From assembly GCA_041742355.1 (NCBI GenBank), contig JBGSIV010000227.1, positions 1 through 29,520 on the forward strand: 29,520 nt of DNA. The letters run 5' to 3'. Numbering within the stretch: position 1 is the first letter of the stretch; every line of letters starts with the position of its first letter. Shown here piece by piece: positions 6,001 to 15,000 of this stretch. Position numbers: made by a program. Source of the stretch: Candidatus Zixiibacteriota bacterium (lineage in GTDB: Bacteria; Zixibacteria; MSB-5A5; GN15; FEB-12).

Positions 6001-9000
6001 CCGTCCTCGTGATATCGCTGGCCATTCCCATCTCGATCGTATCGAGCTTCCTCGCGGTGGCGCTCACCGGGCGTTCGCTCAACGTGATTTCGCTCGCCGG
6101 CATGGCCTTCGCGGTCGGCATGGTGGTCGACAGCGCCATAGTTGTTCTGGAAAATATCTATCGCCACATGCAGATGGGGAAGAGCCGGTGGGAAGCCGCT
6201 TTGGACGGCACCAGGGAAGTCTGGGGCGCCCTGCTCGCCTCGACCGTCACCACGGTCGCCGTCTTCCTGCCCATCATGTTTGTCAAAGAACAGGCCGGGC
6301 AACTCTTCAAAGACATCGCAGTTGCCATCTCGACCACCATCATTCTCTCGCTGATTGTTTCGATCACGGTGATTCCCACGCTGGCGTCGCGCATGCTGAA
6401 GGTCTCGACAAAACTGGCCGGGCAAGATGACTCCAAAGGCTGGCTCGCCCGGTTCGCCCGGAGAGTAGCCGATATCGTCGACTGGTCCAACAGCACCGGT
6501 CGGCGACGGTTCGGTACGATCCTCGGCATCCTCGTCGTCGCCGTCGGCCTGACTGTCCTGCTCCTTCCGCCGGCCGAGTATCTGCCCAACGGCAACCAGA
6601 ACCTCATATTCGGGTTCATTCTCCCGCCCCCCGGTTACAACCTCGATGAAATGGTCGGAGCGGGAGAGATGATCGAGAATCAGTTGCGCCCACTCTGGGA
6701 GACCGATCCCGCTTTGGCCGACACCTTACCAGGCGGCGGCATCGACAACTTCTTCTATGTCGCTTTGCCCAATCAGGCTTTTCTGGGAATGGCCGCCCGC
6801 CATCCGGAACGCGCCGCTGAACTCGTCCCGATCGCCAACCAGAGCCTGTTCTCCATTCCCGGGGCGATCGGTTTCGCTTCCCAGGCGTCGCTTTTTGAAT
6901 CAGGCTTCGCCGGCACTCGCTCGGTGCGTATCGATATCTCCGGTCCCGAATTGCCCGAGATTCTCCAGATCGCCATCCAGGTTTTCGGACAGGTTCCCCA
7001 GGTGCTCCCCGGTGCAAACTCACGGCCCATTCCCGGCCTCGATCTTGGCAACCCGGAGGTTCGGGTGTATCCCGACCGTGTCCGTGCCGCCGATGTCGGC
7101 CTCGACGCTTCCTCTATCGGTCGATCGGTCAACGCGCTGGTCGACGGCGCCGTTGTCAGCGAGTACTTCCACAACGGCCGCGAGGTCGACCTGCTCATCA
7201 AGGGTCGGGACGATTGGAGCCGCCACACGCAAGACATTGCGATGCTCCCCATCGCCACTCCCGGCGGCCGCATTATCACCATCGGCGATGTCGCCGACAT
7301 CCGCCAGGAACAGGGGCCCGTCCAGATCAATCACATAGAACGCCTGCGCACCGTTTCGATTGAGACCATCCTTCCCGACAACCTTCCTCTCGAGGAGGCG
7401 GTTGCCCGTCTCGACCGGGAGATCGTCGAACCGATGCGTGCCCAGGGGGTGCTCGGCGGCCTCTACGACATCAACCTCTCCGGTACCGCGGACGACCTGA
7501 CGAAACTCCGAACGGAGCTGATGACCGACTTCCACATCGCGATCATCCTGACCTACCTGCTGCTGGTCGCTCTGTTTCAGTCTTTCACCTACCCGCTGGT
7601 GGTCATGCTCACTGTCCCGCTGGCCACGTTTGGCGGTGTCGTCGGCCTGGATCTGCTGCAGGTATTCGATCCGTCGCAGCAGCTTGATGTCCTTACCATG
7701 CTTGGTTTCGTCATCCTCGTCGGTACGGTGGTGAACAACTCGATTCTCATCGTCTACCAAGCCCTCAACCTCATGCGCGAGGGTTGGGAGCCGCGCAGCG
7801 CAGTGAAGGAATCGGTCCGCGTCCGTGTGCGGCCAATCTTCATGACCACCGGCACCACGGTGCTCGGGATGCTGCCGCTGGTAGTTATGCCCGGCGCCGG
7901 TTCCGAGCTCTACCGCGGTATCGGCGCGGTTATTATCGGCGGCCTGTCGGTTTCGACCATCACCACGCTGGTGCTGACGCCGCTCGTCTTCTCCTACGCA
8001 ATTGAATTGGTGCTGAAGGTCCGCGGCCTGTTCGGCCTCGAACAGCGTGCGGCCGGTGTCGCGCCCTCCCTGCAGGAGGAAAGCCGGGGCTGACGTTGGC
8101 CGGATGACCTGATCGGATCTGCTGAGTGATTGAGGCGCAGCTGAATTGGCCGCGCCTTCTTTTTGCCTATCGGTTGATTCGTGAGCGCGCCCGGCCTGGC
8201 AGGCAGCTCTTGTGGAAGATCCCCCGGTCCTGACGACCAGCGAACGGCTACACGGTCAGCAGTTGCTTCTGCGCCAGCTCGCGGTACAGCGGCGAACAGG
8301 CCAGCAGTTCTTCGTGCGTCCCCTGGCCGACGATCTGCCCGCTATCGAGCACGACAATTCGGTCCGCATGTCGCACAGTGGCCAGGCGGTGTGCGATGAT
8401 GATCGATGTCTTTCCGCGCAGCGCCTTTTCCAGCGCCACCTGGATCAGCTCTTCGTTGCGCGTATCCAGCGCCGAGGTCGCTTCGTCCAGGAGCATGATC
8501 GGCGGGTTCTTGAGCACCGCCCGAGCCAGGCACATCCGCTGCCGCTCCCCGCCCGAGAGCGTCACTCCGCGCTCGCCCACCTCCGTTTCATACCCGTTCG
8601 GCAGCCGCTCGATGAAATCGTGAATGTTCGCGACGCGCGCCGCGGCGGTCACCTGCTCCATTGTCGCCGTCTCTTCCCCGTAGGCGATATTCTCCCGGAT
8701 GCTCCCCGTGAACAGCACCGGATCCTGATCCACCAGCCCGATGATTCCCCGCAGTTCCTTCACGCCCAGGCGCCGGATATCCACGCCGTCGATGCTGATC
8801 GTCCCGCTGTGCGGATCGAAGAACCGCAGCAGCAGGTTGATCACGGTCGTCTTGCCCGATCCCGATGGCCCCACGATGGCCACGGTCTCGCCCGGTTCGA
8901 CCGCCAGGGACAGGTGGCGCAGGGCGAAGTCATTGTCCTCGTAGGCGAAATCGACCTGCTCGAAGACCACCCGGCCCTCGACGCGGTCCAGCGTTTTGGG

Positions 9001-12000: not shown

Positions 12001-15000
12001 ATTTTCGATAATCTTGTAGAAGCTCCCGCGTTTGCTCTTCAGCGGTCGCTTGACGTCGTGAATCCGGGCCGGGCCGTCCAGGGTCACCTGCACGAACGTC
12101 ACCCGCCAGTCCACCAGGCGATCAACCGTCTCCGGCGTCAGCAGGTAGCCGTTGCTCACCATCGAGGCGCGGTACGTGTACTGGTAGCGTTCGGCCATTT
12201 CCATGAACGCCTTGGTCAGCTCCTCGATGACATCGAGGGCCAGCAGGGGCTCGCCGCCGTACCAGTCGACCGAGAGATTCTGCAGGTGCTTCGCCTGCTT
12301 TTCCACGAAGCCGACCAGCGCCGTTCTGACCTCGGGCGACATTTTCCGCTTCGTTTTCTCCTCATAGCAGTACACGCAGGCCATGTTGCAGGCCATCGTC
12401 GGCGCGATGACCAGTCCCAGCCCCGTCCGGTCGTAGCGGTTCAGGTGGTGCTGAAACCGGAGGTCATAGAACTCCGAGAAACCATCCTTCCGCACGAATC
12501 CCCCAAACTCCAGCTGCTTGAGAAGTTCCGCTTCCGGCTCGGTCAACTCCGCCGCCCCGGGCCCGCGCAGCTTCGCGACCAGGTTTTCGTAAACCCCGTA
12601 GTTCTCGTCGGTCATCAGGGCAACCGCTCCGGAAAACGCGTTGTAGGCGATGTGGTAGCCGTCCTGCCATCGCTGGAAATGGTTATAGCGAGACACGGTA
12701 GACATGCTTTGATTCCGCCATTTGCAGTTCTTGACGCGGGGCAGTGCCCGGTTCTGCCCCACGCTGGTTCGCATCGTATTTCGGATGCGCCTATCTGTTC
12801 GAGGGACCACATCGACGGCCGGCCATTCATCGGACCGTCGATCTGCAGGCCGGTATTACTGTCCGGCCTGCAGAACAATCAGCATTCCGATCACATGTAA
12901 ATCGGATCAATCCCGTACAAAGCCTTGGGACGCAGACAGCTGCACGGCCGATTCGCCACGGCCTGCGGGTCGACTAAATAGATCATGTAGTCACCTCCCT
13001 TCGATCGTTATGCTGTTGTGGTTCCCGGCCAACCTCGTCGTGAGCCTGGCTTTGGAGCCGCAATTTTCCACTTTCCCTGCGTTTGAAATCAGATCGCACC
13101 GGAGGCAGCTATCGCCTCCGGTGCCATGGCGGTATCAGATGTCGATACCGTAGAGAGCCTTCGGGACTTTGCAGGTGCACGGGCGATTCGCCACAACCTG
13201 CGGGTCGATTAAATAGATCATTCCGAACCTCCGTGAATGATCTTGCTCCAGGAGCGGCCGCAACACCGCCGGGGAATTCAGAAAGGAGACTCTTCCGGCG
13301 AACCGCGAGCACCCCTATGCAGCAAGTGGTGAGTGTAACGGATGCCCGACCGAACCAGGTCGCCCCGGATGCATCAGCACCCCGGACAACTCATCCAGGC
13401 GAGCGTGGGCTTCTCATTCTTCTATGGCATGCAATTTGGATAGCGGCAGCGGCAGAAGGACTGTGCCGAAACACCATGCCCCCAATTCACTGCCTACTCG
13501 AATTTCACTGGTATCCCATCAGACACTATCAACGAGACCACGAATGTCATGTCAACGTCATTTTGGTCCTACTTACAAAAAGTAAGCGTCATGGACAAAA
13601 GTGTCAAGGACTAACTGGTCAAGTATCGTCAGAAATTGGATAGAACGTGGTCTCTATGCTGGTTCTTCGCCAAATCGCTTGAATCCCCCTCTGTAATCAC
13701 CTACATTTTGGTACGCGAATCACTACGTTCGGATGCGAATTTTCGTCACCGCTTACGTAACCCGGAGGGTCATTCGATGCGCGCCATGGTTCTCGAACAA
13801 CAGAAGCGCCCCCTTCAACTCCGCCACCTCCCCGACCCGACCCCCGGCCCCGGGCAGATTCTCCTGAAAGTCCACACCTGCGGTGTCTGCCGCACCGACC
13901 TGCATGTCCTCGACGGCGATTTGCCTGAACCGGCCCTCCCGCTCATCATGGGCCACCAGATTGTCGGCAGCGTCGCCGCCCTCGGCGCCGGTGTCACCAC
14001 GCACGCGATTGGCGACCGCGTCGGCGTTCCCTGGCTGGGGGGGAGCTGCGGACAGTGTCACTTCTGCCGCACCGATCGCGAGAACCTCTGCGACAGGGCG
14101 CGCTACACCGGCTACCAGCTCAACGGGGGCTTCGCCGAGTTCGCGGTCGCCGACGAGCGTTTCTGTTTCCCCATCCCGGAGGACTATCCAAGTCTGCAGG
14201 CCGCCCCGCTTTTGTGCGCCGGGCTCATCGGGTACCGCGCGTTGCGCATGACCGGCGACTCGTCACGGCTCGGGCTCTACGGTTTCGGCGCCGCCGCGCA
14301 TATTGTCATTCAGGTCGCCCGCTACCGGGGGCGGGAGGTCTACGCTTTCACGCGCGAGGGGGATACCGAATCCCAGCAGTTCGCCCGCGACCTCGGCGCG
14401 GTCTGGGCGGGCCCCTCCGGGGAGATCCCTCCTGACCCCCTCGATGCCGCCATTATATTCGCCCCGGTCGGCGACCTCGTGCCGACCGCCCTGAAAGCCC
14501 TAACCAAAGGCGGCATCGTCGTCTGCGCCGGCATCCACATGTCGGATATCCCGTCGTTTCCCTACCGGCTCCTGTGGGAGGAGCGCTCGATCAAGTCTGT
14601 TGCCAACCTGACCCGCCGCGACGGCGAGGAGTTTCTGCGGCTCGCCCCGCTCGTTCCGGTTCGCACCGAGGTTCACGCTTATCCGCTGGAGAAAGCCAAC
14701 GTAGCGCTCGACGACCTTCGCGCCGGTCGGTTCACCGGCGCCGCCGTTGTCGTGGTGGATGAAGGCGCCGCCCCTGCCTCCTGAGAGGTGGATTCGGCGC
14801 GCCATTGGCTCATGCGGTCGCCCTTGACTTTTCCGCGCGGGCGGCCTATATACCGATGATTCCGTCCATGACTTCGGAGCGAAGAATCGCCCCTCGGCCT
14901 GGTTTACGTGAGGAACGCCCATGTCCAGCTTCGTCGCATCCTTCATCGCCGACCTGCGCAACACCCACCCCGGCCAGCCGGAATTCCACCAGGCGGTCCA

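Follow-up and report, generated by a model that had tools for sequence, protein, structure and literature searches.

A single minus-strand operon encoding two precursor peptides (A and B), two radical SAM enzymes (rSAM1 and rSAM2) and an ABC exporter lies within the window, a 29,520-nucleotide stretch of contig JBGSIV010000227.1 from a Candidatus Zixiibacteriota bacterium. The peptides belong to a real, conserved and unannotated family of ribosomal peptides, accompanied by radical SAM maturases and an exporter. Because these tiny Cys-bearing peptides are encoded beside a sulfur-cross-linking-type enzyme, a backbone-splicing-type enzyme and an exporter, our prediction is that the cell's probable products are small cross-linked peptides bearing a protease-blocking keto-amide group. 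The chances are about even that the operon is a RiPP system with both putative modifications, a thioether and a ketoamide, in its product, as a hybrid or variant of the spliceotides. A wholly new RiPP class had been proposed in the survey's finding; the X-Tyr-Gly motif of the precursors and the relationship of rSAM2 to tyramine spliceases argue instead for a variant or hybrid of a described one.

As the survey reported, two tiny paralogous genes lie upstream of tandem radical SAM/SPASM genes and an ABC exporter: all five positions within 8248-13221 were reproduced, and all five genes are on the minus strand. Peptide B (13135..13221, 28 aa plus stop) is followed directly on its 3' side by a G+C-rich 12-bp hairpin (13096..13124, minus strand; -27.4 kcal/mol, z -2.8) that is terminator-like, with a weak T tail. 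A second 12-bp hairpin (12842..12874, minus strand; -29.6 kcal/mol, z -4.7), without a T tail, separates peptide A (12891..12986, 31 aa plus stop) from rSAM1 (11338..12705, 455 aa) and is likely an attenuator or stabiliser that fixes how much precursor transcript there is relative to enzyme transcript. In the family as a whole, folding gives z < -2 for 36 of the 69 stretches 3' of the peptides, compared with 7 of 63 coding controls. The operon continues with rSAM2 (10233..11333, 366 aa) and the exporter (8248..10020, 590 aa), an MsbA-like half transporter that lacks a C39 peptidase domain.

Synteny and peptide searches across the window's phylum bear out the claim that this layout recurs in other Zixibacteria. 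The rSAM1 and rSAM2 genes are adjacent in all 20 wider loci and are followed by an ABC gene in 19 (truncated in one of these); the only recurring neighbours are three radical SAM genes and the ABC gene. rSAM1 has a match at E<=1e-40 in 98 of the 285 genomes of the phylum, and 85 of those 98 match at E<=1.5e-120 (manual count of the result table). These data bear on a possibility raised by the survey, that the peptides give rise to a redox cofactor, as PqqA and MftA do, and not to an exported product. We regard this as extremely improbable: MftC, PqqE and AhbD/NirJ enzymes are distant relatives of rSAM2, but each locus has one to six paralogous, hypervariable precursors, 19 of 20 loci have a dedicated ABC exporter, no conserved dehydrogenase or other cofactor-using partner lies beside the cluster, and the distribution is patchy (an orthologue in about 85 of 285 genomes).

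Recurrence of the peptide family exceeds chance and is independent of motif picking, which removes the concern that the original count of small ORFs was not blind. In an all-against-all comparison, performed without the motif on 1,766 stop-to-stop segments from the regions upstream of 30 orthologues, 68 same-strand segments each matched at least 10 other loci. Most were the peptides (about a dozen were the first residues of rSAM1 remaining in the slice), and no antisense segment had matches to more than 6 loci. A jackhmmer search seeded with peptide A against 11,217 six-frame segments from 35 loci gave 74 matches, all on the enzyme strand. The final set comprises 69 peptide ORFs in 33 of the 35 loci, with a GGAGG-type ribosome site at all 68 that have upstream sequence. 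The peptides lack an annotated family, as previously claimed: peptides A and B and three relatives match no Pfam or NCBIfam model credibly at E<=1, the weak matches of peptide B alone to curli CsgC models being at chance level, and 253 database clusters carry only the name 'hypothetical protein'.

Family precursors are 28-46 aa long and begin with a block of consensus M-[IV]-[YF]-L-[IV]-[DE]-P; the short motif proposed for N-terminal recognition is thus real, its assignment to either enzyme being putative. Most relatives' peptides hold three to five Cys. In the family cores, 95 of 158 neighbouring Cys pairs are spaced C-x3-C. Of the 69 peptides, 65 contain Tyr-Gly (two of the other four have Tyr-Ser), which is preceded by Leu (42), Cys (14) or Met (9), with Pro at -2 in 63 of the 65; the full P-[LMC]-Y-G-[VIL]-P occurs in 40 of 69. 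This C-terminal block, previously described as a conserved tail, is the X-Tyr-Gly motif, the substrate site of spliceases (PMC11414181, PMC11626197 and PMC10533398). LYG and MYG are given as experimentally spliced sites in PMC11626197 and PMC10533398, and the local context in the family is the same as in the PlpXY splice tag ...RPLYGLPI listed in Table 1 of PMC10533398.

rSAM1 is probably a thioether-forming type of maturase, a chemistry that we predict from its CteB/Clo7bot-like character and its RRE domain. Its structural model (pLDDT 85) has an N-terminal RRE-like domain of three strands and three helices, ahead of a radical SAM core (C106/C110/C113) and a SPASM domain, and the best structural matches are chains of CteB (5wgg/5why; TM 0.63-0.71). 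This RRE, radical SAM and SPASM architecture is that of the ranthipeptide/SCIFF maturases, including PapB, and the C-x3-C periodicity of the cores is a further likeness. The best NCBIfam families are all of Cys-rich-peptide maturases, although rSAM1 falls under every curated cut-off (Clo7bot TIGR04334, 330.5 of 600 bits; TIGR04463, 304.3/525; CefB, 207.7/600; PapB, 134.4/340), and no relationship links the precursors to the SCIFF, Clo7bot or Crp families. In the title of PMC13692751, CrpC, a TIGR04463 member, is stated to install protein thioether crosslinks. All invariant Cys of the rSAM1 family are kept. The survey's assignment of rSAM1 to the Cys-rich-peptide maturases is supported by families, fold and architecture, and its NCBIfam figures for both enzymes were reproduced.

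The survey's further claim, that both maturases are of one ranthipeptide/sactipeptide kind, is not supported for rSAM2. Its two best matches among 18,950 NCBIfam models are the GDL-motif family TIGR03913 (208.9 of 592 bits) and the PlpX-type splicease family TIGR04103 (206.5/725), and the same two families lead for 105 of its 106 nearest database representatives. None of these 106 reaches either cut-off, so that membership of a splicease clade is a matter of best-hit rank and not of a tree with validated enzymes. The survey did not mention the near tie with TIGR04103; TIGR03913, for its part, scores as well as the splicease family, a counterpoint to the splicease assignment. We take InterPro entry IPR026482 to be the same family as TIGR04103. 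PlpX is placed in IPR026482 in PMC11002830. rSAM2 has a radical SAM core (C19/C23/C26) and a SPASM domain, lacks an RRE, and keeps all invariant Cys and motifs of its family, including S-G-G-E at residues 61-64 for SAM binding. It lies in the neighbourhood of the tyramine spliceases, with a putative activity on Leu-Tyr-Gly. Splicease-like and Clo7bot-like halves are joined in one database protein (P0068, 938 aa), the latter half being 32% identical to rSAM1.

Described spliceotide enzymes include the binary RhaX/RasX/RcsX as well as PlpX/PcpX, which act with a Y protein; all have XYG precursors (PMC11414181, PMC11626197, PMC10533398, PMC9811515, PMC11002830 and PMC10849128). Like these, rSAM2 is a radical SAM/SPASM enzyme without a fused RRE, has TIGR04103 among its two best families, and is accompanied by precursors with a conserved X-Tyr-Gly (X being Leu or Met) whose P-L-Y-G-[VIL]-P resembles the published tag. 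In contrast, rSAM2 is far under the TIGR04103 cut-off and invariably occurs together with a CteB/Clo7bot-like maturase and Cys-rich cores, often also with a B12-type radical SAM enzyme. Cys is frequent at X in precursors for which splicing is predicted here from sequence, and these carry a 7-residue N-terminal block where the described spliceotides have a Nif11/NHLP or helical leader. Family clusters contain neither a Y protein nor a long leader helix, both of which known spliceases use.

We modelled rSAM2 with peptide A, three [4Fe-4S] clusters and SAM in three runs, with three controls. The complex score was 0.90 (runs 0.86, 0.90 and 0.90), versus 0.00 for the best control; among 157 solved complexes 116 attain the score mark, against 2 among 215 mismatched pairs, counts that are only rough here because our own alignments were used and ligands were included. 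The runs share at least 93% of contacts, with partner pLDDT of at least 75. Ile2 and Tyr3 contact residues 293-295 and 308-312, while Tyr24 and Gly25 contact residues 12, 59, 61, 88, 111 and 260-262 inside the barrel, a placement like that reported by the spliceotide authors from AlphaFold models of their own.

Both enzymes might instead install Cys-derived thioethers (ranthionine or sactionine), leaving Tyr-Gly as a recognition or structural element only. Both belong to the SPASM type, StsB (106.7 bits) and SkfB (74.2 bits) are among the weaker matches of rSAM2, the latter also being its best PDB sequence match, and the three to five Cys of most relatives would suffice for two enzymes. We consider this quite unlikely: the thioether families score far below TIGR03913 and TIGR04103, the window peptides offer just two Cys each for two enzymes, and the least-error contacts in the barrel involve Tyr24-Gly25, not Cys15 or Cys17. 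Sister clusters, which provide a natural control, also argue against it, as they keep Cys and an rSAM1-type enzyme but lack the Tyr-Gly block and an rSAM2-type enzyme alike. In ten sister loci an rSAM1-like enzyme (31-36% identity) is paired with a different second radical SAM enzyme; for the two that were scanned the best family is MftC, AhbD or pseudo-SAM/SPASM TIGR04347, with only 78-92 bits to TIGR04103. The sister peptides, found by profile, are likewise tiny and Cys-bearing. Their first seven residues (MKFIEKP...) resemble the N-terminal block of the family, but ...LPPW is the usual C-terminal ending, with two variants differing. The P-x-Y-G block is missing from all 18 distinct sister peptides recovered by jackhmmer, and the family peptide profile had no match in the 20 paralogue loci. 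Accessory genes differ as well: in this sister family, which occurs in the same phylum and also in the window's own genome (G000:C25, locus L115), the MftC-like enzyme is joined by methyltransferases and an S9 peptidase.

rSAM2 could also modify Tyr without excision, by a cross-link (C-C, C-O or C-S to Cys) or by MftC/PqqE-like chemistry. It matches MftC (147.8/265) and PqqE (83.5/381), which act on Tyr or Glu-Tyr, and the complex model, which does not discriminate excision from cross-linking, shows no more than Tyr-Gly seated in the active site. The Cys immediately before Tyr in 14 of 65 peptides might point to Cys-Tyr chemistry. This alternative is unlikely, though not strongly so: the near-invariant Gly, the tolerant X (Leu, Met, Cys) and P-x-Y-G-[VIL]-P fit splice sites and not known cross-link motifs, and cyclophane-forming families are absent from the best 25 NCBIfam models of rSAM2.

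Under the hybrid thioether and ketoamide proposal, both precursors would be translated from strong ribosome sites, and the hairpin 3' of each precursor gene would probably keep precursor message in excess over enzyme message. rSAM1, with its RRE and CteB-like fold, would bind the precursor, probably via the 7-residue N-terminal block, and form thioethers between Cys thiols and carbons of side chains. The C-terminal block would be threaded into the barrel of rSAM2, which would act on Tyr24-Gly25. Export would be by the ABC pump, apparently without a dedicated leader peptidase, and the exported peptide may, to judge from other spliceotides, be a conformationally constrained protease inhibitor.

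The window holds a reduced version of the system, with a third enzyme lost. This B12-type radical SAM enzyme (rSAM3) is encoded in 13 of 20 relatives but was not found anywhere in the whole assembly (93.8% complete); a same-genus locus keeps a remnant in a gap (45% over 55 aa, E 4e-10). Peptides A (MIYLVDP block, Cys15, Cys17, Leu23-Tyr24-Gly25) and B (MIYLIDP block, A-L-Y-G near the C-terminus) are 79% identical and the shortest of the 69. They have two Cys each in a rare C-x-C spacing, and these two alone of the 65 have Ala before Leu-Tyr-Gly, where Pro is near-universal. With the Ala and the C-x-C they could be poorer or altered substrates. That they hold fewer Cys than their relatives had counted against them; 17 of the 69 family peptides also have two.

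These features might indicate a remnant in decay, one that has stopped making the ancestral product, which we consider very unlikely. rSAM3 is also missing in 7 of the 20 relatives, every invariant Cys and family motif is kept in both enzymes, and the hairpins are intact. RNA-library contigs from two studies cover 12855-13400, including both precursor genes, at 90-100% identity, with the caveat that such contigs may hold DNA and make gene ranking impossible. The ribosome sites are likewise intact (GGAGG, 6 nt 5' of the ATG, for peptide B; GGGAGG at about 12994-12999 for peptide A), even though the 60 nt upstream of the two genes are unrelated (12/60 identical). Finally, 13 codons differ between the two genes, 7 synonymously and 6 not, with synonymous changes at conserved residues (C17, P20, L23, G25, I26 and D27).

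The cluster in the window consists of five genes on the minus strand: the paralogous precursors peptide B (13135-13221, 28 aa) and peptide A (12891-12986, 31 aa), the radical SAM/SPASM enzymes rSAM1 (11338-12705, 455 aa) and rSAM2 (10233-11333, 366 aa), and an MsbA-like ABC exporter (8248-10020, 590 aa). Spliceotides are RiPPs whose splicease (PlpX and others) acts on an X-Tyr-Gly motif of the precursor, leaving a ketoamide. The cluster is best filed as a spliceotide variant combined with ranthipeptide-type stapling, both chemistries being putative, and the window as a reduced two-enzyme form of it. 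The rSAM1 start was set by its orthologues, which begin M-x-K-[IL]-S-R-Y-N-H-F, and rSAM2 starts four bases past the rSAM1 stop. A domain search of the exporter returned ABC_membrane and ABC_tran only, with no C39 peptidase domain.

Each peptide gene in the window has a GGAGG-type ribosome site before it and a 12-bp G+C-rich hairpin on its 3' side. The two genes differ at 13 codons (seven changes synonymous and six not); since the synonymous changes fall at conserved residues and the flanks of the two genes are unrelated, the similarity of the peptides is maintained at the protein level. No sigma-70-like promoter was found in 12600-13700. The G+C content is uniform along the window and thus gives no sign of recent foreign origin. 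The flanking genes, all on the plus strand, encode an AcrB-type RND pump (4923-8093), which runs convergently to the ABC gene, a zinc-type alcohol dehydrogenase (13636-14784) and a 445-aa ORF (14921-16258); none is conserved with the cluster, and outside the window the pump occurs only in the two closest relatives.

Matches to rSAM1 occur in 98 of 285 genomes of the window's phylum at E<=1e-40 (85, by table count, at E<=1.5e-120), and 30 orthologue loci were chosen from this search. When all stop-to-stop segments upstream of rSAM1 in these loci were compared with one another, free of any motif, 68 same-strand segments matched at least ten other loci (mostly peptides, about a dozen being the first residues of rSAM1 in the slice), and no antisense segment matched more than six. 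A six-frame jackhmmer search of 35 loci, started from peptide A, produced 74 hits, without exception on the enzyme strand. The family comprises 69 peptide ORFs of 28-46 aa in 33 of the 35 loci, one to six per locus, starting with ATG (60), GTG (8) or TTG (1); a ribosome site precedes all 68 that have upstream sequence. No family peptide was found beside the orthologue loci L036, where the ABC gene is truncated, and L048, a 41% relative that has a further radical SAM gene upstream. The survey's finding, that peptides, two radical SAM genes and an ABC exporter share one strand and that the peptide family recurs in relatives, is borne out on both counts: all five genes were confirmed, and the family was recovered without the motif.

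The peptides are invariant or nearly so at M1, [YF]3, L4 and P7, and at P-x-Y-G toward the C-terminus. Two cysteines are present in 17 peptides, three in 22, four in 24, five in 5 and six in one, and C-x3-C is the most frequent spacing (95 of 158 neighbouring pairs). X-Tyr-Gly is found in 65 of the 69, as L-Y-G in both window peptides. The family profile matches 253 protein clusters at E<=0.001 among 5.8 billion proteins. Tyr-Gly is present in all 120 matches listed, a count to be read knowing that the searching profile itself rewards the motif; among these 120, those with names are only "hypothetical protein", and none carries a Pfam domain. The window peptides stand out from the rest of the family: they are its shortest members, have two cysteines each in the rare C-x-C spacing, and are the only two among the 65 with Ala replacing Pro before x-Tyr-Gly.

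A degenerate DNA pattern for the two conserved blocks, run against one genome per species for 185,579 species, matched 42 stretches. Thirty-six lie just upstream of an rSAM1 orthologue, with rSAM2 also present in 35 of them, and the remaining six are genuine family peptides with ribosome sites elsewhere in the genome. The pattern's third match in the genome of the window, on contig C138, is a chance hit that ends after 8 codons. The submitters' labels on the 42 matches are Zixibacteria/Zixiibacteriota, GN15, one Calditrichaeota, one Alphaproteobacteria and many "Ignavibacteria"/Ignavibacteriales MAGs, a mixture that looks inconsistent for a single gene family of narrow distribution.

Twenty relatives' loci were taken with 7 kb on either side and, together with the window, compared as 21 loci. 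The rSAM1 and rSAM2 genes are adjacent in all 20, and the ABC gene comes next in 19, truncated in one of these. Between rSAM2 and the ABC gene, 13 of the 20 relatives carry a third radical SAM gene, rSAM3 (approximately 476 aa; for example L033:4432-5859, minus strand), with B12-binding and Radical_SAM domains. Its best NCBIfam family scores 78 bits (cut-off 251), with weak matches to RiPP C-methyltransferases, and its own family is unnamed. The presence of rSAM3 tracks no obvious peptide feature: the loci L039 and L044 have near-identical peptides and differ in rSAM3 status. In the window, rSAM3 is missing from the 212-nt gap between rSAM2 and the ABC gene, where there is no remnant, and also from the whole assembly (93.8% complete), in which the best match has 29% identity and an E value of 7.7e-9. 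A locus of the same genus, L031:9400-10100, holds an rSAM3 remnant in a 560-nt gap between these genes (45% over 55 aa, E 4e-10). The missing gene and the same-genus remnant together show the window to be a reduced, derived two-enzyme form.

One of the six family peptides standing elsewhere in their genomes, an orphan precursor at L082:4501-6110 (plus strand), has an rSAM3 homologue (58% identity) immediately after it but neither rSAM1 nor rSAM2; in that MAG the main cluster, L092, is without rSAM3. The five other orphan precursors stand alone (L051, L063, L073, L075 and L080). No other conserved gene was found around the cluster in the 21 loci. PAS histidine kinases or hybrid kinases, which may be regulators, lie near eight of them in varying positions and orientations (for example L034:1635-3437, minus, and L038:1202-6071, plus).

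The first enzyme, rSAM1, has the architecture of ranthipeptide/sactipeptide maturases: an N-terminal RRE, a radical SAM core, and a SPASM domain with auxiliary clusters. Its AlphaFold model (pLDDT 85) has an RRE-like beta3-alpha3 domain at residues 8-90 ahead of the radical SAM core, and in a Foldseek search with this model CteB chains rank 1-3 (TM 0.63-0.71). CteB is also its best PDB match by sequence, aligned from residue 17. The CxxxCxxC motif and the C-terminal cysteines are invariant. The best NCBIfam models are Clo7bot maturase (330.5 bits, cut-off 600), TIGR04463 (304.3/525) and CefB (207.7/600), then FlmE/OhkG, geopeptide and PapB (134.4/340); SCIFF scores 82.5/425, and no curated maturase cut-off is reached. 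The title of PMC13692751 reports protein thioether crosslinks for CrpC, a member of TIGR04463. From its family and fold, rSAM1 is read as a putative thioether-forming enzyme.

The second enzyme is of a different kind. In rSAM2 the radical SAM cysteines are at positions 19, 23 and 26, the cysteines of the SPASM domain are invariant, and there is no RRE. Its top models are TIGR03913 (GDL-motif peptide-associated maturase, 208.9 bits, cut-off 592) and TIGR04103 (nif11-class maturase 3, 206.5/725), followed by TIGR04133, AhbD and MftC. The TIGR04103 match is full-length (10-336 against 6-346 of 412) and ranks second of 18,950 models, below the cut-off. Searched exhaustively with phmmer, 1.84 billion representatives gave 494 proteins that match rSAM2 at E<=1e-30. 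Among the 106 of the best 150 neighbours that were scanned for families, TIGR03913 and TIGR04103 are on top in 105, and none of the 106 reaches a cut-off (highest score 317.6). Because the same two families lead throughout, rSAM2 can be placed within a large, mostly unnamed neighbourhood of TIGR03913/TIGR04103. We take TIGR04103 to be the same as InterPro IPR026482, that is, the family of PlpX. A passage in PMC11002830 assigns PlpX to IPR026482. The survey had read both maturases as ranthipeptide/sactipeptide-like; this interpretation stands in part, for rSAM1, which matches thioether-type families and the CteB fold (all below cut-offs), and is not upheld for rSAM2, given its two top families. 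That rSAM2 might instead be a cofactor maturase is countered by its scores, which fall below the cut-offs of MftC (147.8/265) and PqqE (83.5/381); PQQ and mycofactocin have a single invariant precursor, whereas the family's precursors are multi-copy and variable.

The precursors carry a block resembling known splice sites. Both MYG and LYG occur naturally as splice sites, and splicing at the LYG of RasA goes almost to completion, according to passages of PMC11626197; one splice tag employed with PlpXY is ...R-P-L-Y-G-L-P-I (PMC10533398, Table 1). The family block is [IV]-K-P-[LMC]-Y-G-[VI]-P, and P-[LMC]-Y-G-[VIL]-P fits 40 of the 69 peptides. Two differences from spliceotides are seen. Spliceotides have a Nif11/NHLP-type or helical leader, whereas for five family peptides (the two of the window and three from relatives) neither Pfam nor NCBIfam offered a credible match at E<=1; only peptide B drew hits, weak and at chance level, to curli CsgC models, and an ESM Atlas search with peptide A gave no usable match. 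Spliceotide systems of the PlpX/PcpX kind also have a PlpY-like activator, whereas no further small conserved gene is present in the 21 loci, as judged by gene conservation and not by a PlpY profile.

A complex of rSAM2 (21-row alignment) and peptide A (40-row alignment) was modelled with three [4Fe-4S] clusters and SAM. The model scores 0.90 (runs 0.86, 0.90 and 0.90), and the best of three controls scores 0.00; the mark is one that 116 of 157 solved complexes and 2 of 215 mismatched pairs reach, a calibration that is only rough here as our own alignments and the ligands fall outside it. Between runs, at least 93% of contacts agree, and the partner pLDDT is at least 75. The least-error contacts are those of Tyr24/Gly25 with rSAM2 residues 12, 59, 61, 88, 111 and 260-262, which set the Tyr-Gly beside the strand of the invariant S-G-G-E (residues 61-64). 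The S-G-G-E motif binds SAM in the radical SAM superfamily. At the other end of the peptide, Ile2/Tyr3 contact residues 293-295 and 308-312 of the SPASM region. This placement of Tyr-Gly in rSAM2 is modelled rather than measured, and it fits excision and cross-linking alike. None of the PDB matches in our sequence search is a splicease complex, and none had been solved as of 2024 according to a passage in PMC11414181, so that memory is a less likely source of the good score.

Paralogues of rSAM1 in the phylum (31-36% identity) provide a comparison: a second radical SAM gene lies alongside in 10 of 20 fetched loci. For two of these sister second enzymes that were scanned, the best family is MftC, AhbD or the pseudo-SAM/SPASM TIGR04347, and TIGR04103 scores only 92 and 78 bits. 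Eight loci hold 18 distinct sister precursors (19 jackhmmer hit lines, two on one peptide), with variants in two more loci. These start M-K-F-I-E-K-P-like, a block similar to that of our family, and mostly end ...L-P-P-W; P-x-Y-G is absent from all 18, and the family profile matches nothing in all 20 paralogue loci. By this comparison the N-terminal block accompanies the rSAM1-type enzyme, and the Tyr-Gly block accompanies the rSAM2-type enzyme; the sister family shows that this tag and this first enzyme are also put to use alongside different C-terminal chemistries. The ten paralogue loci without a second radical SAM gene, in which precursors were not identified, add nothing to it. The window's own genome has a sister cluster, L115 (contig C25, 19361-27211, minus strand), encoding an S9-type peptidase (650 aa), an rSAM1-like enzyme (462 aa, 31% identity), a 28-aa peptide MKFIEKP...LPPW, an MftC/AhbD-like radical SAM enzyme (360 aa) and two methyltransferases that match daptide MTases weakly.

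P0068, a 938-aa database protein, fuses a splicease-like radical SAM domain (6-342) to a Clo7bot-like one (500-929). Its relatives in metagenome contigs are only distant (24-38% identity), and the fusion itself was not found there. On two metagenome contigs, L103 and L113, three or four radical SAM genes come after a long protein built from ...N-T-G-Y-x-x-Y-S-D-[FH]-T... repeats; this may be another Tyr-rich substrate system.

We consider it possible, though somewhat short of probable, that these clusters encode phylum-wide "mini-spliceotides": precursors of 28-46 residues with a 7-residue N-terminal tag as leader, thioether-stapled and ketoamide-armed by two radical SAM enzymes, with a B12-dependent third enzyme in most lineages, and exported as rigid protease inhibitors on a scaffold not yet seen. 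The value of spliceotides lies in their being gene-encoded ketoamide protease inhibitors and in their use for protein labelling. If the proposal is true, splicing and thioether stapling are joined on very small precursors for which the 7-residue tag seems to suffice, which would make them attractive for engineering and libraries, and this would be the first predicted natural-product chemistry for an uncultured phylum. Hundreds of natural variants are at hand (the 253 database clusters and 69 peptides examined), and natural "deletion" forms such as the window, without rSAM3, would be useful for assigning each enzyme's role. No description of the peptide family was found in the literature; some clusters may be among the predicted systems of a 2022 splicease survey, which, as cited, counted 27 characterised and 939 predicted systems, with PlpX-like enzymes in 189 genera. 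As of 2022, according to a passage in PMC9811515, no native host was known to yield a final spliceotide natural product.

Contigs of four RNA libraries, three belonging to one study and the fourth to another, cover 12855-13400, which includes both precursor genes, at 90-100% identity, some pieces without any difference. As such contigs may contain DNA and cannot rank genes, they lend weak support to transcription of the precursor region in nature, and the uncovered bulk of the maturase genes is no result. Hairpins behind precursor genes are a common trait of the family, as the stretches after these genes fold with z below -2 in 36 of 69 cases, against 7 of 63 coding controls. Within 13016-13310, variants among the RNA-library contigs have 184-293 bases around peptide B swapped for unlike sequence of comparable length; in related strains the second precursor is probably a different one.
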